NCBI GenBank assembly: GCA_963663995.1
Contig: OY760660.1
Span: 690,001-722,000, forward strand
DNA length: 32,000 bases
Source: Erysipelotrichaceae bacterium
GTDB lineage: Bacteria; Bacillota_I; Bacilli_A; Erysipelotrichales; Erysipelotrichaceae
Direction of reading: 5' to 3'
Positions 4,808 to 22,232 of the stretch are shown piece after piece (the stretch's first letter is position 1; every line of letters starts with the position of its first letter). The position numbers were made by a program, and so were the translations under genes. The notes under the pieces are model-generated. The model saw only the letters and a program-made list of their open reading frames with translations, ran no database searches and was not told the DNA's origin.

Positions 4808-4933
4808 CTATTTCCCCCATGTCAGTTCGACACCAGGTAAACTGACTCGTCCTCGACCACTGGTAATGACTTTGTAGATAGCCGCTACCCCAGCCGCGAT
4901 TGCGACATAAACTAGAATCGTAGATGTTGCCAT
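4808..4933 (-). CDS. 41-aa single-pass hydrophobic peptide (MATSTILVYVAIAAGVAAIYKVITSGRGRVSLPGVELTWGK)
   Basis: It falls below the ORF-track length cutoff. A strong SD (AGGAGGT) lies 6 nt before the ATG at 4933. An Ala/Gly-rich TM helix is followed by a basic tail, and the TAG stop lies 5 nt before the radC ATG. Confidence 0.55.
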   Translation of the reverse strand: MATSTILVYVAIAAGVAAIYKVITSGRGRVSLPGVELTWGK

Positions 4934-4970: not shown

Positions 4971-5153
4971 CTATTCTCCTAAGATTTCTTTTAATTCTTT
5001 GATTTTTTCTTCAATTGTGATTAGAGCTTGATTTAATTGATGCTCTTGAATGGCTTCATGTTCCCACTGAATACTTTCAACAAGTTGCCCACTTTCAACA
5101 GCGATTAAATGAATCAGTCTTTCGACTTCACTACGGTTGAGTTCTTTTTTCAT
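4971..5153 (-). CDS. Hypothetical 60-aa helical protein (MKKELNRSEVERLIHLIAVESGQLVESIQWEHE...)
   Basis: ORF only. The longer 95-aa form would overlap the divergent transporter gene, so I use the internal Met. There is no SD. It faintly resembles a MazG-type helix motif (E-x-G-x-L-x-E). Confidence 0.35.
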   Translation of the reverse strand: MKKELNRSEVERLIHLIAVESGQLVESIQWEHEAIQEHQLNQALITIEEKIKELKEILGE

Positions 5154-5193
5154 ATAAGACAAGTGTATACTAAATTTAAGAACGATAACACTT

Positions 5194-6480
5194 ATGAATG
5201 AATCACTCAGCAAAAAAGAGAAAATAGCTTTTGGCTTTGCTGGTCTTGGCCAAAACATGGTTTATAATTTCGCCACTGCTTATATCATGGTTTTTTATAC
5301 GGATGTTGTAAAATTACTTCCTTATGCAGTTGGGACCATGCTTTTAGTGGCTCGTTTCTTTGATGCAGTAAATGATCCTATAATGGGAATATTTGTTGAT
5401 CGAAGAAAAGGTGGACGAGAAAAACTTTTACCTTTTTTACGTGCTGTACCTATTCCGATGTTTATAGCTACGATGTTGTTATTTTTGATTCCCTTTGAAA
5501 GTATGGGAGCGCGCTTAATCTATGCTTATTTTAGTTTTATTTTATGGGACTTAGTTTATACCGTATCTGATATTCCATTTTGGGGATTGACAGTCTTAAT
5601 GACACCCCATTCAAAAGATCGTTTATCTTTACTGACTTATGCTCGCGTCCTCTCGAATGTTGGATTAGCGATATCAATCGTTATTCCACCATTAATGATT
5701 TCTTCTCTAGGATCAAATCACCGAGCTTATTTAATTACCGGCTTAATCATGGCTGGTATTGGTGTTCTCCTATTTTCTTCAGTTGGTTTTTTCGCAAAAG
5801 AGCGTGTTCATCCTGATAATAACAATCAAAAAGGCAGTCTATTATCCATCCTAAAAAATAAACCTTTAATGATTCTACAAAGTTCACGTTTACTCTCTGC
5901 TTTTAGAATGGTCCTAGCCACTTCTGGCTTATATTACGCTAAGTATAATTTAGGCGATGAAGCTCAATTCTCAATCATGGGCGGTTTATTAATCGCATCG
6001 ATGATTCTCGCCATGCTGATTACCCCACGCCTACGAAAAAATTACACTAAAAAAGCCCTTTACAATTTTTCTCTTGTTTTAGGCTTTATAGCTCATTTTA
6101 CTTTATATCTTATTGGTGATACATCAACGATTATCACCTATTCAATGCTCTTTATATCAGGTTTATCATTAGGTTTAGGCGATGTTATCTCTTATACCTT
6201 AGTTGGAGATAGTGTTGAGTATCATCATCAAAAAACAGGTATAAGACTTGAAGGCATGATCTTTGCGACCCATACCTTTACCACTAAACTTCAATCAGCT
6301 CTAGGTTTATTTACAATCGGTCTTGTTTTAAACTACAGTGGATTTATTGAGAATACCCTGCAAAATCCAAGTGCTCTAAATGGAATCTTTTCGCTAATTT
6401 CTCTATTACCAGCCATTGCTTGTTTACTGAGTTTAATACCTATGTTTTTCTTTAAACTTGACGATAACATTCACGCTTAA
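5194..6480 (+). CDS. Glycoside-pentoside-hexuronide (GPH) family cation symporter (MelB/YicJ/YihO-like MFS)
   Basis: About 12 TM segments. The GPH signature FFDAVNDPIMGIFVDRRKGGREKLLPF lies in the loop between TM2 and TM3. Confidence 0.85.
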   Translation: MNESLSKKEKIAFGFAGLGQNMVYNFATAYIMVFYTDVVKLLPYAVGTMLLVARFFDAVNDPIMGIFVDRRKGGREKLLPFLRAVPIPMFIATMLLFLIPFESMGARLIYAYFSFILWDLVYTVSDIPFWGLTVLMTPHSKDRLSLLTYARVLSNVGLAISIVIPPLMISSLGSNHRAYLITGLIMAGIGVLLFSSVGFFAKERVHPDNNNQKGSLLSILKNKPLMILQSSRLLSAFRMVLATSGLYYAKYNLGDEAQFSIMGGLLIASMILAMLITPRLRKNYTKKALYNFSLVLGFIAHFTLYLIGDTSTIITYSMLFISGLSLGLGDVISYTLVGDSVEYHHQKTGIRLEGMIFATHTFTTKLQSALGLFTIGLVLNYSGFIENTLQNPSALNGIFSLISLLPAIACLLSLIPMFFFKLDDNIHA

Positions 6481-7289
6481 AGCGACTTATTCATTTTCAA
6501 GATAAGTTGGGCAAATTCTGAAACCCCAGCTTTTTTTGCGTCTGAAACAATAATATCAGCGACTTCTTTAATAAAGTCATCAGCATTATCGACGGCTGCA
6601 CTATAACCGACTTCACTTAACATAATACGATCATTGACACTATCACCAATGGCCGCCACATGATCAATGCTATCTCCTTCCAGCTGAAGGATTTCTTGTA
6701 TACCACTAAGTTTGGAATGACCAAAAGGCATAACATCCATATAAGCATCACTAAATCGCTCACAATAAGCTTTATCATGATATTTACTGATAAAAGCATC
6801 TAAGAGTTCTGGATAATCATTATTTTCACGATGCAAACAAAGTTTTGGAAAAGGATTATGAACATTATTAAGTTCAGTAATTGGAGCCACCTTCATCTTA
6901 CAGTGATCTCTTTCATAAATAACAGAATGATCTAAATGAGAATAATAAAGAGTTTTATCTTGTTCTAAGGAGAAATGAAGTCCTAATCTTTTCGCTTCTT
7001 CAATATACTCACTCAAGTCTTCAACACTGTGATCATATTGGACAAAAGGTTTTAAATCACCGGCTCTTTGAACCATCGTTCCATTTCCACCGACTAAAAA
7101 ACCACCATATTTTTCTAAGTGAACTGCTTGTGCAACAACTTCAATTGCTGAAATGGTTCGACCAGAAGCCAAGATAAGTTTTACCCCAGATTCTTGTAAT
7201 GCAATTAAGGATTCTATGTTTTTAGGGTGTATCCCTACTTCAACATCAAACAAGGTGTGATCAATGTCGGTAACGAAATATTTATACAT
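6477..7289 (-). CDS. Cof-type HAD-IIB sugar phosphatase (YbiV/Cof-like)
   Basis: Motif I is VTDIDHTLF, motif II ILASGR, and motifs III/IV are K...GDSVNDRIML. The cap domain is of Cof-family length. Confidence 0.85.
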   Translation of the reverse strand: MYKYFVTDIDHTLFDVEVGIHPKNIESLIALQESGVKLILASGRTISAIEVVAQAVHLEKYGGFLVGGNGTMVQRAGDLKPFVQYDHSVEDLSEYIEEAKRLGLHFSLEQDKTLYYSHLDHSVIYERDHCKMKVAPITELNNVHNPFPKLCLHRENNDYPELLDAFISKYHDKAYCERFSDAYMDVMPFGHSKLSGIQEILQLEGDSIDHVAAIGDSVNDRIMLSEVGYSAAVDNADDFIKEVADIIVSDAKKAGVSEFAQLILKMNKSL

Positions 7290-7298
7290 ACAAGTGAT

Positions 7299-7307
7299 AT
7301 TTTAACA
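7299..7307 (-). promoter_or_regulatory. Extended -10 (TGTTAAAAT) 9 nt upstream of the HAD (6477-7289) ATG; leaderless-type
   Basis: The minus strand reads TGTTAAAAT-atcacttgt-ATG, with no SD. Confidence 0.5.
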
Positions 7308-7322
7308 TGAGTTAAAATCACA

Positions 7323-7331
7323 TGTTATAAT
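7323..7331 (+). promoter_or_regulatory. Extended -10 (TGTTATAAT) 7 nt upstream of the HAD (7339-8124) ATG; leaderless-type
   Basis: The plus strand reads TGTTATAAT-tttcatt-ATG, with no SD. It forms a back-to-back inverted pair with the 7299-7307 box. Confidence 0.55.
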
Positions 7332-7338
7332 TTTCATT

Positions 7339-8124
7339 ATGAAAAAATTACCAAAAACATTATTCTTTGATTTTGATGGTACAATCGTTGATCCGATTAG
7401 CCATACAGTACCCCAGACTGCTCTTGATGCCCTTCAAGAACTACACGATAAAGGCTATCACATTTGTATTGCCTCTGGCCGTGGTTATCCACTTTTAAAG
7501 GCAACTGGCATTATGCAACAATTCCCTTGGTCAGGTTATGTTTTAAATAACGGACAATTGATAAAAGATGAAAACGAAGAAACATTGATTCATCACTTTA
7601 TCGAACACGATGTTGTTTTAAAACTGATTGAAGAAGCAAATAAATTAGATTTAAATATTCAATTTGGCGCAAGCTCAGGTGACTTCATGAATAAAGAAGC
7701 AAACGATTATGTTAGAGCTGCTCATGAATTCTTCCATGAACCTATTTCACCAGTGGGTGAATATACAGGTCAATCTTGTGACAAGATTTTAGTCTACAAT
7801 GAAGTTGGTTATGATTATGCTCCTTTTAAAGCGATAAAAGGTCTAGCTGTTTTTCCAGCTAGAAGCTCCTATGCCGATTGTGCATGTGAAGGCATTTCTA
7901 AAGCAAGTGCCATCATTGAAATGTGTAAACATAAAGCTTGGGATGTTCATTATGCTGCCTTTGGAGATTCACACAATGATATGGAAATGTTACAAGGTGC
8001 AAGTTTAAAAGTAGCGATGGGTAATGGTGAAGAAGAACTTAAAGACATTGCTGATTATGTTGCCCCAAATGTTTGGGATGATGGACTAGCAAAAGTTTTA
8101 AAAGATATTGGTTATATTGACTAA
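7339..8124 (+). CDS. Cof-type HAD-IIB phosphatase
   Basis: Motif I is FFDFDGTIVD, motif II IASGRG, and motif IV FGDSHNDMEML. Confidence 0.85.
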   Translation: MKKLPKTLFFDFDGTIVDPISHTVPQTALDALQELHDKGYHICIASGRGYPLLKATGIMQQFPWSGYVLNNGQLIKDENEETLIHHFIEHDVVLKLIEEANKLDLNIQFGASSGDFMNKEANDYVRAAHEFFHEPISPVGEYTGQSCDKILVYNEVGYDYAPFKAIKGLAVFPARSSYADCACEGISKASAIIEMCKHKAWDVHYAAFGDSHNDMEMLQGASLKVAMGNGEEELKDIADYVAPNVWDDGLAKVLKDIGYID

Positions 8125-8152
8125 AAAGTTGGAATTATTTCCAACTTTTTTT
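8123..8152. terminator. Bidirectional rho-independent terminator shared by the HAD gene (+) and the GRE-aldolase operon (-)
   Basis: The stem AAAAAGTTGGAA/TTCCAACTTTTT (8123-8134/8139-8150) has a TTAT loop, with T-runs on both strands. Confidence 0.8.
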
Positions 8153-8831
8153 ATAGATCATTTAAACCTTTATTATCTCCATACATTGAATACCAGTCTT
8201 TATTGAAATCATTGACTGCTTTTTCAATATTTGGATTATCAAAGATATTTTTCAGTAAATCAACAGGTGCTGTTATGGCTTGTGCACCCGCATTGAAGGC
8301 ATCTTTGATTTGTTGATTATTCTTAAAACTAGCTGCCACAATCTTACAATCATAATCATCACTGGCGATTCGATATGATAAATGATCGATTAAATCATAA
8401 GGATCTGTACCTAAATTACTCATCCGATTTACATAGGGGGCAATATAATCTGCTCCAGCTGCTAAGGCAAGATAAGCTTGCATTAAATCATAGACAGCAG
8501 TAGCTGTTACTTTATAACCTTTTTCTTTTAAAGTTTTAATGGCTTTTAAACCAACCATATTTACTGGAATTTTGATATAAACTTGCTTATCCACTTCTTG
8601 GTGAATTTTTTTTGCTTCCGCTAAAATACCTTCATAATCTTTCGCAATTACTTGAATATGTAAACTACGATCTTTACCAATGATTTCTCTTATTTCACGC
8701 ATATGCGCATAGAAATCTTTGGGAGACACTTTTTTTACGATACTTGGATTAGAAGTAACACCCACAATTGGTAAATACTCAACCGCTTCTCTTATTTCAT
8801 CTAAATTTATGGTATCAATAATAAATTCCAT
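8151..8831 (-). CDS. fsa: Fructose-6-phosphate-aldolase-type (FSA/TalC subfamily) class I aldolase
   Basis: It aligns by eye with E. coli FsaA: GVTSNPSI; a Schiff-base Lys in YIKIPV (K87); IQV (Q60) in place of the transaldolase Glu; APYVNRM (Y133) in place of the transaldolase SPFxGR Phe. An AGGAGG SD overlaps the GRE stop. Confidence 0.85.
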   Translation of the reverse strand: MEFIIDTINLDEIREAVEYLPIVGVTSNPSIVKKVSPKDFYAHMREIREIIGKDRSLHIQVIAKDYEGILAEAKKIHQEVDKQVYIKIPVNMVGLKAIKTLKEKGYKVTATAVYDLMQAYLALAAGADYIAPYVNRMSNLGTDPYDLIDHLSYRIASDDYDCKIVAASFKNNQQIKDAFNAGAQAITAPVDLLKNIFDNPNIEKAVNDFNKDWYSMYGDNKGLNDL

Positions 8832-8839
8832 AAAACCTC

Positions 8840-11251
8840 CTAAATACTTTGTTCTGTTCTTTCAATGATATCATCTTGTGTTGCTTTTGATAAAACATTG
8901 AAGAAAGCAGAATATCCAGCCACCCGAACAATTAAATCACGGTGTTTTTCAGGATGATTTTGAGCATCAATTAAGGTTTCGCGAGAAACGACATTGTATT
9001 GCACATGATAACCTTTTAATCGATTAAAGAATGTACGAATTAACATTTCTAATTTAAGTTTATTCTCATCAGTGGATAACATTTGTGGTGTCACTTTTTG
9101 GTTTAATAAAACACCACCTGTTATTTCATGTGTTGGTAATTTAGAAACTGTTTTAAAAACAGCTGTGGGACCCGATTTATCCATTGAATGAGCTGGTGAG
9201 CAACCTTCAGCTAGCGGTGACCTTCCTTTTCTTCCATCAGGTGTTGCTTTCGTTTTTAAACCTTGTCCTACATTGGCTGAGATAGATGATGTTCCTGCAT
9301 AGCGGATTCCACCAATCGGACCACGATTATGGCGTGTGTTAGGGTATTTCTTCATTTCTGAAATATAGGAATCGTACGCATCAACGACTAATTGATCTAC
9401 ATAATCATTGTCATTTCCATATTTCGGTGATTCCATGATTAACATTTGTTGAATTTTTTGAGACTTTTCAGATGTAAAATCATCTTCTAAAGCAGCCCAT
9501 AATTCTTCTGTTGTGATTTTTTCTTGTTCAAAGACTAATTTCTTAATGGCGGCTAAGCTATCCGCTGTATTGGCAATTCCTACTTGTAATCCTGAGATAA
9601 AGTCATAAATCGCTCCACCCTCTTTAATCGATTTACCACGACCAATACAATCTTGAGTTAAGGTTGAACATAAAATATCAGGTACTGAACGCTCTAATGC
9701 TAAATCAACAGTATTTTCAACAATCACTGACATACGTGTTAATTCACGTACCGTTTTATCCCAAGCATCCGCTAATTCTTCATAAGAAGACATGTCCGTA
9801 AAGTGGCCATATCCTTTAGTAAAACGTTTTCCACTTGTCACATCAATCCCATTATTCATCGTGATTAAAAGAATACGTGGGAAGTTCATATAACTCATAC
9901 CGGTACAACGATATCCCCATTTCCCTGGAACCGCTGTTTCAACACAACCAATCGCTGAATAATTATAGGCATCTTCTTCAGAAACCCCTAAATTTATAAA
10001 AGAAGGAATAATAATTTCATCACTATTAAAGGCCGGCATACCGGTTCCAAGTTTCATAACTTCGATACATTCATTCATAAATTTTTGGTCTAAACCTGCA
10101 TAATAGCGAACGGTTAAATTAGGTTGAGGTAAGCGAGTTTGAGCAACTGATTTTAAAACTAAGTAGGATAGCGCATTTACAGCATCTTTTTTATCACTTG
10201 TTTGCCCACCAATTGTGACATTTTGATATAGGGGAGATCCAGCACTTGAATAGGTGTGTGCTTGACTTCTAACTTTATTAATTGTGTATGTTTTAATCCA
10301 AAGATTTGTTAAATATTCTACCGCTTCATCTTCTTCAATAATCCCTCTTTCAAAATCTGCTTTGTAATAAGGATAAATATATTGATCAAATCGTCCATAG
10401 GATAAGGAGTGTCCATTTGATTCTATTTGCAGAATTAATTGAATAAACCAAGTAGCTTGGATAGCTTCTTTAAAAGAACTCGCTGGATAATAAGGTACTT
10501 TCTCACAGATATCAGCCATCTCTAATAATTCTACTTTACGTTTATCCTCTGCCGTTTTCGCTAAATCTTTCGCTAATGTAGCATAACGATGAGCGAAATT
10601 TTGAACCGCATCAATCGTAATTAAAACAGAACGATAGAAATGATATTTATCAATATTTTCAGGTATGGTTAAATCTAAATCTTCTTTTAATTTTAAAGTT
10701 CTTTCTTCATAGCCTTTTAAACCTAATTTAAGCATTGATTCATAATCGACCGCTAAGTGGGCATCCCCTGAGTTTAATTTACCTTCCATGCCAAAGAAAC
10801 CCGTTTCCATAAAGACAGAAACTTCATCAGGTAACATCGCTCCACCTTTAGCACGTAAGTTATTATTCTCCCAAAAGTCAGCAATAGATCGTAAATCTTC
10901 TTTAGCTTTCTCTGTAATATAGAAAACATCACCATCACGTTTTTCAAATAAATCAAGTTCTTTAATAACAAACTCTAACGTATACTCAGGAAAAATAGGT
11001 GCATCTTTATTTGACTCCGCTTGGTTCCCTACAATTAAAGTTTCATCTTCAATATAAATTGTCATTTTATCTAAGATGTTCTTAAGCATTAAAGCTCTTT
11101 GAATAACAACCGGTTGATTCTTAGTTTCTTTGTAAGACTCTGTTACCAGTAGTGCTCTTTCAGCACTAATATAAGGTTTCTTTTCCAAAACAGCTTCACG
11201 ATAATCATTCATACGTTGACTTAAAGATCCGAAATATGCATCATTTTTCAT
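8840..11251 (-). CDS. Glycyl radical enzyme, dehydratase/eliminase class (PFL2/YbiW/PflD-like), 803 aa
   Basis: The C-terminal glycyl radical motif is LIVRVAGYSAFF (G779, codon 8915-8917). The thiyl loop has a single Cys, AIGCVETAV (C436/E438, 9938-9949), not the CC pair of true pyruvate formate-lyase. A GGAG SD is present. Confidence 0.9.
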   Translation of the reverse strand: MKNDAYFGSLSQRMNDYREAVLEKKPYISAERALLVTESYKETKNQPVVIQRALMLKNILDKMTIYIEDETLIVGNQAESNKDAPIFPEYTLEFVIKELDLFEKRDGDVFYITEKAKEDLRSIADFWENNNLRAKGGAMLPDEVSVFMETGFFGMEGKLNSGDAHLAVDYESMLKLGLKGYEERTLKLKEDLDLTIPENIDKYHFYRSVLITIDAVQNFAHRYATLAKDLAKTAEDKRKVELLEMADICEKVPYYPASSFKEAIQATWFIQLILQIESNGHSLSYGRFDQYIYPYYKADFERGIIEEDEAVEYLTNLWIKTYTINKVRSQAHTYSSAGSPLYQNVTIGGQTSDKKDAVNALSYLVLKSVAQTRLPQPNLTVRYYAGLDQKFMNECIEVMKLGTGMPAFNSDEIIIPSFINLGVSEEDAYNYSAIGCVETAVPGKWGYRCTGMSYMNFPRILLITMNNGIDVTSGKRFTKGYGHFTDMSSYEELADAWDKTVRELTRMSVIVENTVDLALERSVPDILCSTLTQDCIGRGKSIKEGGAIYDFISGLQVGIANTADSLAAIKKLVFEQEKITTEELWAALEDDFTSEKSQKIQQMLIMESPKYGNDNDYVDQLVVDAYDSYISEMKKYPNTRHNRGPIGGIRYAGTSSISANVGQGLKTKATPDGRKGRSPLAEGCSPAHSMDKSGPTAVFKTVSKLPTHEITGGVLLNQKVTPQMLSTDENKLKLEMLIRTFFNRLKGYHVQYNVVSRETLIDAQNHPEKHRDLIVRVAGYSAFFNVLSKATQDDIIERTEQSI

Positions 11252-11269
11252 AAAATAAACTCCTTTTTA

Positions 11270-11281
11270 TTTCATTTGAAA
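11270..11281. promoter_or_regulatory. Palindrome TTTCAttTGAAA, candidate DeoR operator in the GRE/activase divergent region
   Basis: 5-bp inverted arms with a 2-bp spacer lie 19 nt upstream of the GRE ATG. The same 12-mer occurs at 13112-13123. Confidence 0.45.
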
Positions 11282-11341
11282 CTTTTTAATGTTTCTTTTA
11301 CAAGTTTAGTCTATAATATTTAAGAAATATGTCAATAAATA

Positions 11342-11369
11342 TTTCATATGAAAGTATATTAACTTTCAT
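11342..11369. promoter_or_regulatory. Composite inverted repeats TTTCAtaTGAAAGT-atatta-ACTTTCAT, candidate operator overlapping the activase promoter -35 region
   Basis: TTTCA-N2-TGAAA (11342-11353) is joined to an 8-bp arm palindrome ATGAAAGT/ACTTTCAT (11348-11355/11362-11369). Confidence 0.45.
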
Positions 11370-11377
11370 TAAGACAA

Positions 11378-11386
11378 TGTTATGAT
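11378..11386 (+). promoter_or_regulatory. Possible extended -10 (TGTTATGAT) for the activase gene
   Basis: TGTTATGAT overlaps the ATGATG at 11382. This placement would exclude the 11382 start and favour ATG 11406. Confidence 0.35.
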
Positions 11387-11405
11387 GAGAAAGAGAAATA
11401 AGCAA

Positions 11406-12302
11406 ATGGAAAAAGGTGTCATTTTCAATATCCAAAAATTTAGTATTCATGATGGTCCAGGAATAAGAACGACCGTATTTTTAAAAGGCTGTCCTTTAAA
11501 ATGTGAATGGTGTTCCAATCCTGAATCACAAGAATTTTCAGTTCAAATCCTTTGGGATGATAGAAAATGTGATAAACAGCTAAAATGCATGAGTGTCTGT
11601 GAAGATAAATCGATTAATCTTGTAAATAATCAAATACTCATTAATCCACAACTTTGTACTCTTTGCGATAAATGCATTAAAGCTTGTCCTAATCAAGCCT
11701 TAAGTTTAAGTGGTGAAACAAAAGAAGTTGAAGATATTGTCAATATTTGTCTACAAGATAAAGATTTCTATGAAGAATCAGAGGGTGGTGTCACTATTTC
11801 AGGTGGTGAAGGAATGTCACAAGCTGAGTTTTTAAAAGATCTTGTCGCTAGGTTAAAAAAAGAAAAGATACATCTAGCCATTGAAACAACTGGTTTTGTG
11901 CAAACCGAAGTATTTAAAGATTTATCCAATCGTTTTGATCTATTACTTTTTGATATGAAACATCATGATTCTACTCAACATAAAAAATATACTGGTGTAA
12001 ACAATGAACTGATCATTCAAAATTTAAGGTATGCTATTCAAAATAATATCAATACATTAGTCAGAATCCCTGTGATCCCTGATGTGAATAATAGTCTTGA
12101 TGATGCTGAAAAATTTTCTAAACTCTTAAATAAAATCGGTGTGCAACGAGTTCAACTTTTACCCTTTCATCAATTTGGGGAAAAGAAATATGATATGTTA
12201 AATCGTGAATATCAGCTCAAAGAAAAAAAAGCCCTCTATCCAGAAGACTTAAAAGATTATCAAAGGATCTTTATCAAACATCAAATTGACTGTTTCTTTT
12301 AA
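11406..12302 (+). CDS. Glycyl radical enzyme activating enzyme (radical SAM) with an inserted 2x[4Fe-4S] ferredoxin-like domain
   Basis: It contains FSIHDGPGIRT, the radical-SAM motif CPLKCEWC (11490-11513), and extra Cys motifs CDKQLKCMSVC and CTLCDKCIKACP. The ORF is open from 11382; I prefer MEKGVIFNIQKF at 11406. Confidence 0.9.
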   Translation: MEKGVIFNIQKFSIHDGPGIRTTVFLKGCPLKCEWCSNPESQEFSVQILWDDRKCDKQLKCMSVCEDKSINLVNNQILINPQLCTLCDKCIKACPNQALSLSGETKEVEDIVNICLQDKDFYEESEGGVTISGGEGMSQAEFLKDLVARLKKEKIHLAIETTGFVQTEVFKDLSNRFDLLLFDMKHHDSTQHKKYTGVNNELIIQNLRYAIQNNINTLVRIPVIPDVNNSLDDAEKFSKLLNKIGVQRVQLLPFHQFGEKKYDMLNREYQLKEKKALYPEDLKDYQRIFIKHQIDCFF

Positions 12303-13063
12303 CTAAGACTTACTTTAATCCCACGATTTTCGAGGGATTTTTTAATTTCATCATCCATTTCAAAATCAGTCACGACTTCGAAGATTCTCTCTGTCTTTAT
12401 GAGTGGAACAACACCACTTTGTTTAAATTTTATCGAATCAGTCACAACAATAACTTTATTTGCTTGCTCAGCCATATCGCGAACGGCTTCAGCACGCATT
12501 AAATCATTTCCAGTAAATCCTATTCTATCTGAGTACCCATCGGTCCCAACAAACAATTTATCAACAAAGAAATTACTAGCACAACGCTTCGTCATCGGAC
12601 CAACCATTACCTGTGCTTCATTTTGATATTCCCCACCAAGGAGTACAATCTTACTTTGATTTACTTTTCTTATAAAATCAGCGACAAAAGCAGAGTTTGT
12701 AATAATCGTAATATCCTTTCGATTAATCGCTAGTTCTAAAGCCACAAGTGCACAGGAAGAACCAGACTCAATCATCACAGTTTCTCCATCCTTTACTGAT
12801 TCAATGGCTTTCTTAGCAATCTTTAACTTTTTATCATAATGATAGGCTAAGCGTGTATTAATATCGTCTTTAGCGTTTAATGTCGCAAATCCATGTTCTC
12901 TTTTAATTAAACCTTTCTCTTCAAGTTGAATTAAATCCTTACGAATAGTAACTTGGGAAACATTAAAAGCTAGTGCTAATTCAGATACATCCACTTTCTT
13001 CTTATCTGTAATCATTTCTAATATTTGTGTATGACGTGTTTCAAGTTTTTTCATCTTAAGCAT
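12299..13063 (-). CDS. DeoR-family transcriptional regulator (N-terminal wHTH plus C-terminal sugar-phosphate-binding DeoR-C domain)
   Basis: The HTH region is VDVSELALAFNVSQVTIRKDLIQLEEKGLIKREHGFA. The C-domain contains ESGSSC...ITNS...LLGGEY...FVGTDG. The start is ambiguous (13063 MLKMKK or 13054 MKKLETRH); the ORF-track start at 13117 lies inside a hairpin. Confidence 0.85.
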   Translation of the reverse strand: MLKMKKLETRHTQILEMITDKKKVDVSELALAFNVSQVTIRKDLIQLEEKGLIKREHGFATLNAKDDINTRLAYHYDKKLKIAKKAIESVKDGETVMIESGSSCALVALELAINRKDITIITNSAFVADFIRKVNQSKIVLLGGEYQNEAQVMVGPMTKRCASNFFVDKLFVGTDGYSDRIGFTGNDLMRAEAVRDMAEQANKVIVVTDSIKFKQSGVVPLIKTERIFEVVTDFEMDDEIKKSLENRGIKVSLS

Positions 13064-13090
13064 AGAATAAACTAAAAAACTTTCATTTAC

Positions 13091-13137
13091 AATAAAAATA
13101 ACTTTCGAATGTTTCATTTGAAATCTTTTCGAAAGTT
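13091..13137 (-). promoter_or_regulatory. Nested palindrome AACTTTCGAA-tg-TTTCATTTGAAA-tctt-TTCGAAAGTT followed by a T-run: operator and/or intrinsic attenuator between the 566-aa gene and deoR
   Basis: 10-bp outer arms (13100-13109/13128-13137) enclose the 12-bp core shared with 11270-11281. On the minus strand the hairpin is followed by ATTTTTATT. An extra TTTCATTT lies at 13081-13088. Confidence 0.5.
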
Positions 13138-13161
13138 ATTTAGTTTATATTTTTTTAAAAC

Positions 13162-14862
13162 TTATTTTGAATTAATTAAAGTTTCAAGTAAGGCAGTCGC
13201 TGTAATTTCTAAGTGATTCTTAGCCGCATCTTTAACACCAAGACCTGAGTAAACTTCACCAACTTTAACATTTGATGCATCTAATGCTTCAAAGTACTTG
13301 TCGATAAGTGGATTACAAGTGTCTTGATCTTGCATAGGTCCAAATGGGTTTGCAAAGTAAGTTACAGATATACCTGATTCATGTGTTGTTGCCATAGCCA
13401 TACGTTTACCGTTAACGAATGTGTCTTTAATTTCTTTAGCACTATCAACAATCTTAACACCTGTTGTATTTTCATAGTTATTCGCATAGAAGAAATAATG
13501 TACAGGATGTGAAGTTGAAATTGTTTCGTAAGTTGAAACAGGAATGATAACACGAGCATTAGTACGTTCTGGATTCATAAAGATTGAACGGTCCATTGTT
13601 TTATATGGGGTACCATTGTCTAAGTCATCTAAACGGATAAAGGCTCCAATTTCAGTTCCTTGGGCAACTACTTTACCATTTTCTAGTTGGAAAGTCCCCA
13701 TATCATCAAAGATAATATCGAAACCTAGTAGTTCTTCATGACCTAATAATTGCATGGCTTCGATCGTTTCTGATTTACCAGCACCACTATCGCCCATGAA
13801 ACAAACACCGATTGGATCACGTCCTTTTAAGTGAACATTGATCATTGCACCGTGAATTGGTAACCAACCACGTTCCATAACAATTGCATTGTGCATTGTT
13901 AACATCATTTTCTTCATGTATCCAAAGTATGAAATCTTTTCACTATAAGCTACTTTTGCAGTCCAGATATCGTTGGCTTTATCGTGGTAATACGTTGTTT
14001 CATCACTACCATCGTTGTAACCAAATATAAGGATACCATCTACTTTTTTCGTTAAGATTTCTTCTTTAGTCGCAAGTTCAAATAAGTTAGCATTTGAAAT
14101 ACCAGAGAAGGAGAAGTCTTTATTGACATAAGCGTAGATTAGTAATTGTCCAACTTTTGCAGGATAAACAAAGTAATCATCTTTGCTAATGGTTAAATCA
14201 GCGATTGGGTTATCTTTTACAAGTTGGAAAGAACCAAAACGTTTCGTTCCTTTTGGTCTTAAAATTAATGGAGCACGAACTAACATTTGATCAATAAACG
14301 GAACGCCTTTTAGATATTCATAACCCGTTGGTATTTTCCATTTAATATCACGTAAAACCATCGAAGCGTTAGTACCAGCTTGAAGTTGGCGATAAACGCG
14401 ATTCTTGCTTCCTTGTAATTTTTCTTGAATACTGCGGTATAAACTTAAAACAGTCGCGTTATAACGAGTATCCATTTCAACAAAGTTATCGGCATGACCA
14501 CTCATTGAAGTCGAAACTTTTAAAACTGATACACGTGACAAGTTACGCCAAGCGTTATAAGCATCTTCAACAATTGTGATTAATTTCTTTGGTTCTTTAG
14601 CTAATGGATGATCAATTTCATCTAGATCAAGTACAAGTAATAATTTGAGTAGTCGAACTAAACCAACAATAGCTTTACTTTGACTTTGACCTTCTAATAA
14701 CCAAGTGTATTTATTTTTATCTGTAGCCTTCAAACCATCTAAATATGTATTTAGAAAAGTTTTAAAACTTTCGTGCGACAAGATCTCATCAGCATCTTTT
14801 GGGAAGAATGCAGAGAAGTTAATTATCGCTGTATCATCGTGAATGTATAATGCATCTTTCAT
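13162..14862 (-). CDS. Uncharacterised 566-aa protein with a PEP-carboxykinase/HPr-kinase-fold nucleotide-binding domain (candidate novel kinase)
   Basis: Ordered motifs in the C-terminal half: LPIHGAMINV (H337); P-loop FMGDSGAGKSE (G357-E365, 13768-13794); IIFDDMGTF (D386-D387); GTEIGAFIRL; ERTNARVIIP (R437). These parallel the PEPCK-ATP motifs MHCSANV / GLSGTGKTT / LIGDDEHGW / FEGGCYAK / ENTRVSYP, and the HprK GxSGxGKSE motif. An AAGAGG SD is present. Confidence 0.6.
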   Translation of the reverse strand: MKDALYIHDDTAIINFSAFFPKDADEILSHESFKTFLNTYLDGLKATDKNKYTWLLEGQSQSKAIVGLVRLLKLLLVLDLDEIDHPLAKEPKKLITIVEDAYNAWRNLSRVSVLKVSTSMSGHADNFVEMDTRYNATVLSLYRSIQEKLQGSKNRVYRQLQAGTNASMVLRDIKWKIPTGYEYLKGVPFIDQMLVRAPLILRPKGTKRFGSFQLVKDNPIADLTISKDDYFVYPAKVGQLLIYAYVNKDFSFSGISNANLFELATKEEILTKKVDGILIFGYNDGSDETTYYHDKANDIWTAKVAYSEKISYFGYMKKMMLTMHNAIVMERGWLPIHGAMINVHLKGRDPIGVCFMGDSGAGKSETIEAMQLLGHEELLGFDIIFDDMGTFQLENGKVVAQGTEIGAFIRLDDLDNGTPYKTMDRSIFMNPERTNARVIIPVSTYETISTSHPVHYFFYANNYENTTGVKIVDSAKEIKDTFVNGKRMAMATTHESGISVTYFANPFGPMQDQDTCNPLIDKYFEALDASNVKVGEVYSGLGVKDAAKNHLEITATALLETLINSK

Positions 14863-14913
14863 AGTAAACCTCTTTCTTTCAGTTCAGAGTTCATAATATC
14901 AAATATCTTAATA

Positions 14914-14968
14914 AAATGAAACAATTTTATGTAATAAAATGTAAATAAATAATGTAAATAAATGAAAC
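14914..14968 (-). promoter_or_regulatory. Promoter/operator region of the 566-aa gene, with two direct GTTTCATTT half-sites
   Basis: The minus strand carries TTGTTTCATTT at plus coordinates 14914-14922 and 14960-14968, the same half-site as the TTTCATTTGAAA operators. A TATTAT -10 candidate lies downstream. Confidence 0.4.
14938..14963. repeat. Perfect tandem duplication of a 13-mer (AATGTAAATAAAT x2)
   Basis: Read directly: 14938-14950 equals 14951-14963. Confidence 0.9.
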
Positions 14969-14994
14969 AAAACTCAAGACATTGCTTGAGTTTT
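14961..14994 (-). terminator. Rho-independent terminator of engB, overlapping its stop codon
   Basis: The stem AAAACTCAAG/CTTGAGTTTT (14969-14978/14985-14994) has a 6-nt loop and is followed on the minus strand by TTTTGTTT. Confidence 0.7.
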
Positions 14995-19970: not shown

Positions 19971-20003
19971 CAACACTTCTTTATGTGTGATGTCTTTTCT
20001 TCG

Positions 20004-20012
20004 TGTTAAAAT
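20004..20012 (+). promoter_or_regulatory. Extended -10 (TGTTAAAAT) 7 nt upstream of the ATG at 20020; leaderless-type
   Basis: The plus strand reads TGTTAAAAT-ttgtgta-ATG. This supports the internal start MKAIIFIV. Confidence 0.5.
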
Positions 20013-20019
20013 TTGTGTA

Positions 20020-20907
20020 ATGAAAGCAATAATATTTATAGTCGGCTTAGCCTTAGCGGCTGGTGGACTCACCTTATCCATTATAGGATTCACTCAAATC
20101 GATAGCTTAGATGTCACAATGCTTGGTCTTTATTTAGGTGGATCATTTCTATTGATGACGATTGGTCTTTATATGATGTTAGTTGTCTTTATGAAAAAGA
20201 AGAAAACAGATGACACAGATGAGAAAGAAAGCATTGAAGAAGTTCTCTTAGATTTAGATGAAGACGAAGACTTAGACACTGAGATATTAGAAATGAGTGA
20301 ACCTACTTCAATGATTGAAGATACGATGGTTCTTAATCTATTTGAAAAAGAAAAAGATGCACCAGTAGAAGAAGAAATGATGAAAAGTGATGATTCATCT
20401 ATTGAAGAAACAAGTGATGCCATTGAATCAGTCGATGATTTAGACATTGAAGATGAGTTTGTAGAAGAAGTCATTGAACTTGATGAAGAACCTGAATTAA
20501 TTGAAGAAGTGTCAGAAGATATTGAAAAAATCAATAATGAAGTTACAGAAGAAGAAAACTTAGATCAAACGCTTGTCTCAGATGAGATTGTCATTAACTC
20601 ACAAGAACCTGTACTAAATGCTAGCTTTGTTGAAGCTCGATTAATCGGGATTGAAGGATTTAAATCTCAGAGAATCTTAAAGAAACTTAGTGAGGGTACA
20701 GAACTTACCTTAAGAGAAAACCAAAAACATGGTTTAAAATCTTGTGAGATTTTCTATCAAAATAAATCGATTGGTTACTTATCAAAAGTTGACTACAATA
20801 AAATGGCGGATAAACTCAATCAAGTTTATAAGATTACAATTTCAACCTTTGTCTATGAAAATAATAAGGTTGCGACTGTAATGCTTAGTTTCATGTTTAA
20901 ACAATAA
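20020..20907 (+). CDS. Membrane-anchored protein: 2 TM helices, an acidic disordered linker of about 130 aa, and a C-terminal HIRAN-like domain (tentative)
   Basis: The TM segments are IIFIVGLALAAGGLTLSIIGF and LGLYLGGSFLLMTIGLYMMLVVF. A D/E-rich tract spans about 20200-20580. The C-terminus LIGIEGF...GTELTLRENQKHGLKSCEIFYQNKSIGYLSK loosely follows the HIRAN pattern but lacks the NPYD motif. Confidence 0.6.
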   Translation: MKAIIFIVGLALAAGGLTLSIIGFTQIDSLDVTMLGLYLGGSFLLMTIGLYMMLVVFMKKKKTDDTDEKESIEEVLLDLDEDEDLDTEILEMSEPTSMIEDTMVLNLFEKEKDAPVEEEMMKSDDSSIEETSDAIESVDDLDIEDEFVEEVIELDEEPELIEEVSEDIEKINNEVTEEENLDQTLVSDEIVINSQEPVLNASFVEARLIGIEGFKSQRILKKLSEGTELTLRENQKHGLKSCEIFYQNKSIGYLSKVDYNKMADKLNQVYKITISTFVYENNKVATVMLSFMFKQ

Positions 20908-21418: not shown

Positions 21419-21444
21419 AATACAGCCATCAGGCTGTATTTTTA
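21419..21444. terminator. Hairpin/terminator between convergent genes
   Basis: The stem AATACAGCC/GGCTGTATT has an ATCA loop and is followed by TTTTTAT on the plus strand. The loop contains the stop codon of the 191-aa minus-strand gene. Confidence 0.55.
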
Positions 21445-22004
21445 TATCTAAATACTATTTCAGCATTTATGAAACGTTTATAATTCTTAATTAATCGACG
21501 AATACGCCTACCTTCAAATGTTAAACGAGATATTGCTTCCCACAAAAATACCCAACCCCCAACAACGACAATTTCGGTTAAGGTGTATGAGACGATATTA
21601 TCTCTGTGTCCAACCCCAAAATAAGAGGATGTTAATAAAAGAGCAGAAATAAATAAGTAAAGCGATGCATTCTTCATGATTCTTCTTAGTTTATTCTTTT
21701 CAAGTTCAACATAAAAACTATAAAACGTTTTAAACCATTTTCGCAAAACTTCTTCTCGAATTACATCTTTCTTCTCATCAGAGAAATAAAAAGAAATATC
21801 AATACAAAAATGAATAGGTATATCATCTATCGAATCTTCTAAGAAACTTATAAGTCCAGGATGAATATCTTTTCGCTTAAATGGTGCATGATCCCAATCA
21901 TTAAAAATGGCTTCATAATTATTAAGGGAAACCTCAATAATAAAATTACCATTCTCTGGATTTCGATCATATAACTTTTCAACTAAACTATTTGTTTTAC
22001 TCAT
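21429..22004 (-). CDS. Hypothetical protein: soluble N-terminal domain plus two C-terminal TM helices
   Basis: ORF only. The TM segments are ASLYLFISALLLTSSYF and IVVVGGWVFLWEAI. No family was recognised. Confidence 0.55.
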   Translation of the reverse strand: MSKTNSLVEKLYDRNPENGNFIIEVSLNNYEAIFNDWDHAPFKRKDIHPGLISFLEDSIDDIPIHFCIDISFYFSDEKKDVIREEVLRKWFKTFYSFYVELEKNKLRRIMKNASLYLFISALLLTSSYFGVGHRDNIVSYTLTEIVVVGGWVFLWEAISRLTFEGRRIRRLIKNYKRFINAEIVFRYKNTA

Positions 22005-22155: not shown

Positions 22156-22232
22156 TGGCGTCCTCAGAGGGATTCGAACCCCCGACCGTGCGCTTAGAAG
22201 GCGCATGCTCTATCCAGCTGAGCTATGAGGAC
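22156..22232 (-). tRNA. tRNA-Arg (anticodon UCU), 77 nt, CCA encoded
   Basis: I folded the cloverleaf manually. Acceptor stem GTCCTCA/TGAGGAC, D stem GCTC/GAGC, anticodon stem TGCGC/GCGCA with loop CTTCTAA, T arm GGGGG-TTCGAAT-CCCTC, discriminator G, then CCA. Confidence 0.95.

Follow-up and report, generated by a model that had tools for sequence, protein, structure and literature searches.

What holds together the nine genes between radC-mreC and engB-lon-tig in the genome of an Erysipelotrichaceae bacterium? They lie in a stretch of 32,000 nucleotides (NCBI GenBank assembly GCA_963663995.1, contig OY760660.1, positions 690,001 to 722,000 of the forward strand), called here the window and numbered from its first letter. 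The original prediction, made from the letters alone, was that the nine form a single sugar island, in which a glycyl-radical enzyme (GRE) and an aldolase are wired to an uptake and activation module that does without the phosphotransferase system (PTS), the whole amounting to an undescribed variant of a known pathway. The answer I reach is a smaller one. Positions 8125-13161 are probably a self-contained, self-regulated cassette for anhydroglycolysis, set among ancestral neighbours and dependent for its substrate, 1,5-anhydroglucitol-6-phosphate (AG6P), on genes elsewhere in the genome. Gene calls came from a listing of open reading frames (ORFs) and from Pfam and NCBIfam scans of the window. 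These bear out the co-localisation of the nine genes, which are framed by znuA-mreD-mreC-radC at one end and by engB-lon-tig at the other. The cassette itself comprises four genes:

8151..8831, minus strand: aldolase of the fructose-6-phosphate aldolase (FSA) type, 226 amino acids (NF009299 304.9 bits, cut-off 214; Pfam TAL_FSA)
8840..11251, minus strand: predicted YbiW-type GRE (glycyl-radical C-O lyase/isomerase), 803 amino acids, with PFL-like and Gly_radical domains
11382..12302, plus strand: GRE-activating radical S-adenosylmethionine (SAM) enzyme, 306 amino acids (TIGR02494 341.9 bits, cut-off 174)
12299..13117, minus strand: DeoR-family regulator, ORF of 272 amino acids (Pfam HTH_DeoR and DeoRC)

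Any reading of the locus must begin with the GRE. When it is compared with the sequences in the PDB, the best matches are 6xs4 (856.5 bits) and the E. coli enzyme YbiW (8id7/8yjn, 855 bits), far above glycerol dehydratase (610 bits), 9rco and diol dehydratase (570-573), CutC (480), PflD (475), HypD (425), HplG (382) and IslA (374). Identity to YbiW is 50% over residues 9-803, against 36% to PflD. The original prediction placed the catalytic residues correctly: the thiyl loop GCVE lies at 435-438 with a single cysteine, C436, and with E438, and the glycyl motif RVAGY lies at 776-780 (G779), within a Pfam Gly_radical match of 117.7 bits over residues 681-785. The segment AIGCVETAV aligns with AIGCIETAV of YbiW, so that C436 and E438 fall on YbiW C441 and E443. 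Five blocks (SGDAHLAV, LQIESNGHS, SPLYQNVTIGG, GTSSISANV and GGVLLNQK) are the same or nearly the same in YbiW and unlike PflD. NCBIfam has no model specific to YbiW, and only its broad PFL2-3 subfamily model exceeds its cut-off on this protein; the equivalog models for other GRE classes (glycerol dehydratase, CutC, HypD, HpsG, IslA) give scores far below theirs. Both the PDB scores and the alignment put the enzyme with YbiW and outside the pyruvate formate-lyase type, as predicted, and its score against YbiW also keeps it out of the classes of choline, hydroxyproline and isethionate lyases (CutC, HypD and IslA). Judged by sequence, it is a YbiW-type enzyme, and over the full length no other characterised class comes as near to it.

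Its two partners in catalysis are of the kinds expected. The activase has the radical-SAM motif CPLKCEWC (Cx3Cx2C) together with Fer4 domains and is 36% identical to E. coli YbiY. The aldolase, whose start lies 8 nt beyond the stop of the GRE gene, is 33% identical to E. coli FsaA, and its K87, Q60 and Y133 align with FsaA K85, Q59 and Y131, which I take to be the Schiff-base lysine and two FSA-specific residues. With the equivalog model above its cut-off and these active-site residues aligned, the protein is classed in the FSA subfamily of class I enzymes with the transaldolase fold.

What would these three proteins do? According to two articles that draw on Ma et al., JACS 2024 (PMC13450708, section 5.7, a 2026 review, and PMC12441222, section 5.1), YbiW and PflD open AG6P and 1,5-anhydromannitol-6-phosphate (AM6P) to give 1-deoxyfructose-6-phosphate, which aldolases convert into glyceraldehyde-3-phosphate and hydroxyacetone. 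The review places YbiW C441 beside C2 of AG6P and E443 on the C2 hydroxyl, and describes the PflD substrate, AM6P, as the C2 epimer of that of YbiW. The pathway that the original prediction named is a real one, from the anhydrohexitol phosphates through 1-deoxyfructose-6-phosphate to the aldolase; what it got wrong was to call the first step a dehydration. It is instead an isomerisation in which the ring is opened (a C-O lyase reaction), with no net loss of water.

I propose that the proteins of the cassette act in the same manner. The activase would turn G779 of the GRE into a glycyl radical, this radical would move to C436, and C436 would take the C2 hydrogen from AG6P. With E438 deprotonating the C2 hydroxyl, the ring C-O bond would be cleaved to give 1-deoxyfructose-6-phosphate, and the aldolase is predicted to split this into glyceraldehyde-3-phosphate and hydroxyacetone. 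There is no obvious hydroxyacetone reductase in the window, unlike the E. coli locus with gldA and some Enterococcus loci with an Fe-dependent alcohol dehydrogenase. A gene for such a dehydrogenase lies next to fsa in five related loci (L008, L036, L055, L070 and L074) and has no counterpart in the window; it plausibly encodes a hydroxyacetone reductase, by analogy with gldA beside fsaB in E. coli.

It might be that the cassette is as described and that the substrate of its GRE is some other phosphorylated anhydro- or deoxy-sugar, or another small polyol. Identity to the characterised YbiW is after all just 50%, the homologue PflD accepts the C2 epimer, the broad subfamily model is the only one to pass, and FSA lies beside the GRE in only 28 of the 80 related loci described below. 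Set against this are the distance between YbiW and the next characterised class (855 bits to 610), the agreement with YbiW at precisely the blocks that discriminate it from PflD, and the position of an FSA-type aldolase immediately downstream, which fits 1-deoxyfructose-6-phosphate as the product. DeoR-family regulators, moreover, fit sugar-phosphate effectors. I consider a different substrate unlikely, and AG6P is the one assumed in what follows.

The second question is what belongs to the system besides these genes. The neighbours on either side, and the boundary to the left of the cassette, are as follows:

5194..6480, plus strand: GPH/MFS_2 cation symporter, 428 amino acids (TIGR00792 300 bits), to which no substrate is assigned
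6477..7289, minus strand: Cof-type HAD phosphatase, 270 amino acids (Pfam Hydrolase_3)
7339..8124, plus strand: Cof-type HAD phosphatase, 261 amino acids (TIGR00099 143.6 bits)
8124..8151, no strand assigned: hairpin AAAAAGTTGGAA-TTAT-TTCCAACTTTTT, where the HAD and FSA genes converge, read directly from the sequence
13162..14862, minus strand: P-loop protein of the phosphoenolpyruvate carboxykinase (PEPCK) superfamily, 566 amino acids, with a sub-threshold PEPCK_ATP match

If all nine genes worked together, an anhydro-sugar would enter unphosphorylated through the GPH symporter and be phosphorylated by an enzyme of the island, the 566-amino-acid protein or another, with the HAD proteins as phosphatases of the pathway: a PTS-independent anhydroglycolysis. 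The nine are indeed contiguous, and a HAD gene lies next to ybiW in E. coli as well. The matter can be judged by what accompanies the GRE in other organisms. One genome per species was scanned, yielding 80 loci (L004-L083) with GREs 75-92% identical to that of the window, from Erysipelotrichaceae/Coprobacillaceae, Anaerostipes, Peptacetobacter, Enterococcus, Vagococcus, Tetragenococcus and Amphibacillus. ORFs were called in each and compared with the proteins of the window, about 1000 neighbouring ORFs were clustered both strictly and leniently, and representatives of the clusters were annotated with Pfam.

The GRE keeps company with the activase in 73 of the 80 loci and with a DeoR homologue in 66-67, besides the 28 with FSA. 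Homologues of the GPH, HAD and 566-amino-acid proteins adjoin it only in L003/L004, one close relative (Lon 97% identical) that preserves the gene order of the window across both cassette and neighbours; they are absent from 78 other loci. Elsewhere the cassette is flanked by unrelated housekeeping genes, among them feoB, pst/phoU, hrcA-grpE-dnaK-dnaJ, parAB and tyrS. Even when clustered leniently, at the level of superfamilies, no family outside the core occurs in more than 22 of the 80 loci, and the most frequent is that of generic ABC ATPases. A conserved transporter or kinase family beside the GRE is ruled out in these 80 loci by the strict and the lenient clustering alike.

The converse also holds. 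Two relatives more distant from the window's organism than L003/L004 have the neighbours and lack the cassette: L002 with the order tig-lon-engB-566aa-HAD-HAD-metallophosphoesterase-GPH-radC-mreC, in which the 566-amino-acid and HAD genes overlap by 4 bp, and L085 with lon-engB-566aa-HAD-GPH-radC-mreC. Their GPH orthologues are 51-53% identical to that of the window. Orthologues of the HAD gene at 7339..8124 stand directly beside the 566-amino-acid gene in both, and L002 has an orthologue of the HAD gene at 6477..7289 with no GRE there. Since the neighbours occur without the cassette and the cassette without the neighbours, the nine do not make up a single island. The genes fsa, GRE, activase and deoR sit where two older genes converge at their 3' ends; the symporter, the two HAD proteins and the PEPCK-like protein are ancestral neighbours that have their own functions. 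Neither the nine-gene island nor its wiring to an uptake and activation module is supported by this comparison. The strands tell the same story, for the GPH, HAD and HAD genes alternate in direction and so cannot be co-transcribed with the GRE operon.

With the hairpin at 8124..8151 as its boundary on the left, the inserted cassette has at its edges no convincing direct or inverted repeats of the kind left by transposons, only the terminator and operator palindromes, and the composition gives no distinctive signal of recent transfer (GC 0.327 in the cassette, 0.343 in the window). Among Firmicutes, the unit in which the pathway moves is a compact deoR-activase-GRE(-fsa) cassette, and the settings in which it is found are many and unrelated.

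Are the two HAD phosphatases at least the counterparts of YbiV, as they would be if HAD, GRE, activase and FSA here were the same set as ybiV-ybiW-ybiY-fsaA? That part of the original prediction fails. The product of 6477..7289 is only 23% identical to YbiV and that of 7339..8124 only 25%. Orthology to YbiV is ruled out by these values together with the presence of the genes in relatives that have no GRE.

The absence of PTS genes, which gave rise to the idea of a new variant, is real: no PTS domain was found in any ORF of at least 80 amino acids across the 32 kb, and this speaks for the island as far as it goes. How unusual is it? The prediction supposed that in E. coli the substrate is phosphorylated by an adjacent PTS. 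This is so at pflD, where frwC-frwB-pflD-pflC-frwD lies beside ptsA-fsaB-gldA, and not so at ybiW, the closer homologue, which has no PTS gene within 10 kb. Of the 80 related loci, 20 have a PTS-family ORF within 7 kb of the GRE and in 60 none was detected, the search being seeded with the PTS families that occur there (Gat, Glc/Lac-type EIIC, EIIA_1/2 and IIB); because mannose-type components were not seeded, the 20 should be read in the manner of a lower bound. A locus free of PTS genes is therefore the norm for YbiW-type systems, and a missing PTS gene does not define a variant. Most such loci, that of E. coli included, have no dedicated transporter, and a PTS-free locus should not be taken as something new. 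The evidence does not bear out an undescribed non-PTS variant, a claim to which I give little credence. AG6P would instead be supplied by uptake and phosphorylation genes elsewhere, as at E. coli ybiW and most of the related loci.

In six Enterococcus loci (L047, L048, L051, L058, L060 and L066) a separate operon lies directly 3' of the GRE and encodes a PfkB kinase, DeoR, EIIA_2, IIB, EIIC-GAT and a class II aldolase; none of the six carries fsa beside the GRE. Here the same GRE may be served by another arrangement for uptake or for the downstream steps.

Several considerations weigh against the reading of an autonomous cassette fed from elsewhere. Specificity for AG6P is extrapolated from 50% identity, and the contacts to AG6P compared with 8ID7 are the Cys and the Glu. 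The seeded neighbourhood search may have missed PTS components of the mannose type, and a PTS or sugar kinase elsewhere in the source genome is an assumption. A deletion in L002 and L085, in place of an insertion in the lineage of the window, would give the same pattern; either way, inserted here or lost there, the neighbours persist without the GRE. Lastly, a Cof-type HAD gene, ybiV, adjoins ybiW in E. coli, and 9 of the 80 loci have an ORF of the HAD family no more than 7 kb from the GRE, so a loose link between phosphatase and pathway is conceivable.

The last point can be made into a model in which the cassette is catalytically autonomous and one or both HAD proteins serve as a relief valve for toxic AG6P or 1-deoxyfructose-6-phosphate. 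It could explain both why the cassette has been retained at this site and why ybiV stands beside ybiW. PMC12441222 reports that AG6P inhibits hexose phosphorylation in mammals, a point in favour of this model. The HAD genes, however, pre-date the cassette or survive without it, their products are little like YbiV, they share no operator with it, and 71 of the 80 loci have no HAD gene nearby. I regard this partial coupling as rather unlikely, and return to the cassette as a unit without the HAD proteins.

How is the cassette regulated? The GRE and activase genes diverge from a 130-bp intergenic region, and two features stand out in the promoters:

11252..11381, no strand assigned: divergent GRE/activase control region, in which two copies of TTTCAWWTGAAA flank a promoter-like site
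13096..13141, no strand assigned: perfect 14-nt inverted repeat upstream of deoR, enclosing a third site, TTTCATTTGAAA, at 13112-13123

The palindrome TTTCAWWTGAAA occurs at 11270-11281 and 11342-11353, and between the copies a promoter scan found a minus-strand site with TTGACA at 11335 and TAGACT ending at 11308. In the 32 kb there are 3 exact matches to the palindrome where 0.17 would be expected, all of them in promoters of the cassette. Upstream of the GPH, HAD and 566-amino-acid genes there is no match with one mismatch or fewer, so that the operator, too, sets the cassette apart from the supposed rest of an island. In the 80 related loci, 51 of the 57 exact matches fall in the stretch from -135 to +22 relative to the GRE start, and the 40 loci that have them belong to different genera. 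That the palindrome is kept upstream of the GRE across genera points to an operator specific to the cassette, and I infer that it is the candidate operator of the cassette's own DeoR protein, a pairing that can be tested. Most of the Enterococcus-type loci, in which the order is activase-deoR-GRE, lack the exact motif.

The inverted repeat at 13096..13141 is probably the operator through which deoR regulates itself, and it may also terminate the 566-amino-acid gene on the minus strand. The true start of the regulator is probably M22, at 13054 rather than 13117, giving 251 amino acids: the Pfam helix-turn-helix domain starts at residue 28 of the long ORF, relative L003 annotates a protein of 251 amino acids, and the operator/terminator palindrome falls within the 60 nt upstream. 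By this model DeoR probably represses both the divergent GRE/activase promoter and its own through the palindromes, probably in response to a sugar phosphate, and repression would hold until that sugar phosphate accumulates. An Rfam scan of the island for a riboswitch or leader gave as its sole match in the window a tRNA at 22159-22232.

There remains the protein that would have to be the kinase if an island existed. It has more than 3600 homologues, all unnamed and mainly from Erysipelotrichaceae. Its AlphaFold2 model (pLDDT 85.6) matches ATP- and GTP-dependent PEPCKs in Foldseek, the best PDB matches being ATP-dependent ones (E about 1e-15, TM 0.42-0.48), which upholds the predicted PEPCK fold, and hhalign aligns it with E. 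coli Pck at 93.5% probability. The alignment pairs YFGYMKK, IHG, GDSGAGKSE and NARV with the Pck regions of Y207/K212/K213, H232, the P-loop (K254/T255) and R333; in the family consensus the position of D268/D269 is not conserved, and the N-terminal domain does not align to Pck. PEPCK models fall below their cut-offs (PF01293 21.4 bits against 26.5, NF006821 19.5 against 369). In the PDB, the sequence finds nothing significant and the family profile no sequence at E <= 0.01, so that kinship to PEPCK is visible only at the level of fold or of profile against profile.

These motifs, a P-loop with PEPCK-like Lys-Lys, His and Arg, make the protein probably a phosphotransfer enzyme, which speaks for the island. 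The small molecule on which it acts is probably an acid, and the family may be a divergent carboxykinase or a new kind of phosphotransfer enzyme. Phosphorylation of sugars is not known for any enzyme of the PEPCK fold, and that counts against its role in an island. So does its company. Members of the family lie in the window and in loci L001, L002 and L085-L164; in none of 79 other loci of the family, from metagenomes and genomes, was a GRE, activase, FSA or cassette-type DeoR gene found within 8 kb. The genes that keep recurring beside it are proS and those for two U32 peptidases, a SpoU methylase and a Bax1-I protein. Nothing links the protein to the GRE.

With the neighbours found apart from the cassette, the strands alternating, the HAD proteins so unlike YbiV, E. 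coli ybiW equally free of an adjacent PTS gene and the operator confined to the cassette, a single nine-gene island is quite improbable. In a narrower form of the idea, this lineage of Erysipelotrichaceae would have kept the cassette beside the GPH gene because the symporter lets in unphosphorylated anhydroglucitol, or some related anhydro- or deoxy-sugar, which a cytoplasmic kinase, possibly the conserved PEPCK-superfamily protein, then phosphorylates. I think this very improbable. If it were true, radical-mediated glycolysis would have an entry independent of the PTS, and the more than 3600 unannotated proteins would gain their first function. Quite apart from the cassette, the PEPCK-like family is a large uncharacterised family of enzymes that merits study of its own.

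A few ORFs in the window lie outside both groups of genes. Between radC and the GPH gene are two small ones on the minus strand, 4808-4933, which encodes a hydrophobic peptide of 41 amino acids, MATSTILVYVAIAAGVAAIYKVITSGRGRVSLPGVELTWGK, and 4971-5153, which encodes a helical protein of 60 amino acids visibly similar to one in relative L003. Genes of 58-60 and 41 amino acids are annotated at the same spot in L002 and L003. Farther along, the ORFs 19987-20907 (plus strand, 306 amino acids, GTG start) and 21429-22004 (minus strand, 191 amino acids) match nothing in Pfam at E <= 1e-5; of the two, 19987-20907 is opposite in strand to most genes and lies in a stretch of positive GC skew.

How does the cassette compare with the systems already known? 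It adds an example from Erysipelotrichaceae to the anhydroglycolysis pathway published in 2024 and has little importance beyond annotation. Its nearest characterised counterpart is E. coli ybiV-ybiW-ybiY/fsaA, in which YbiW is the AG6P C-O lyase (8ID7). The two GREs share the GCxE loop and RVAGY and are alike over their full length, the activase and aldolase are more distantly related, and neither locus has a PTS gene. The window differs in having a DeoR regulator within the cassette, where E. coli has no adjacent regulator; in its aldolase gene, which is co-directional and immediately 3' of the GRE gene, whereas fsaA of E. coli is divergent; and in its HAD proteins, which are not YbiV orthologues. 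Its activity, moreover, is predicted from sequence.

The second E. coli system, frwCB-pflD-pflC-frwD/ptsA-fsaB-gldA, in which PflD is the AM6P C-O lyase (8ID0), follows the same logic of GRE isomerase, activase and FSA. Its GRE is less similar, its specific blocks are not shared, and it carries frwC, frwB, frwD and ptsA, along with gldA for the reduction of hydroxyacetone, none of which is in the window. More distant are glycerol dehydratase (1R8W), CutC, HypD, HpsG and IslA, which have in common with the window the PFL2-type fold, the single-Cys CxE loop and an activase of the type with two ferredoxin clusters. Against glycerol dehydratase and the other 1,2-eliminases the GRE scores at most 610 bits, well short of its score against YbiW.

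Closest of all are the deoR-activase-GRE(-fsa) cassettes of the related loci. They have the same core set of genes, and half of them the same TTTCAWWTGAAA sites, while the genes that flank them vary from locus to locus; some of those in Enterococcus add an Fe-alcohol dehydrogenase after fsa or adjoin a Gat-type PTS/PfkB/class II aldolase operon. By comparison with all of these, the locus in the window probably holds an ordinary four-gene copy of a known, recently described oxygen-sensitive pathway for the dietary sugar 1,5-anhydroglucitol.

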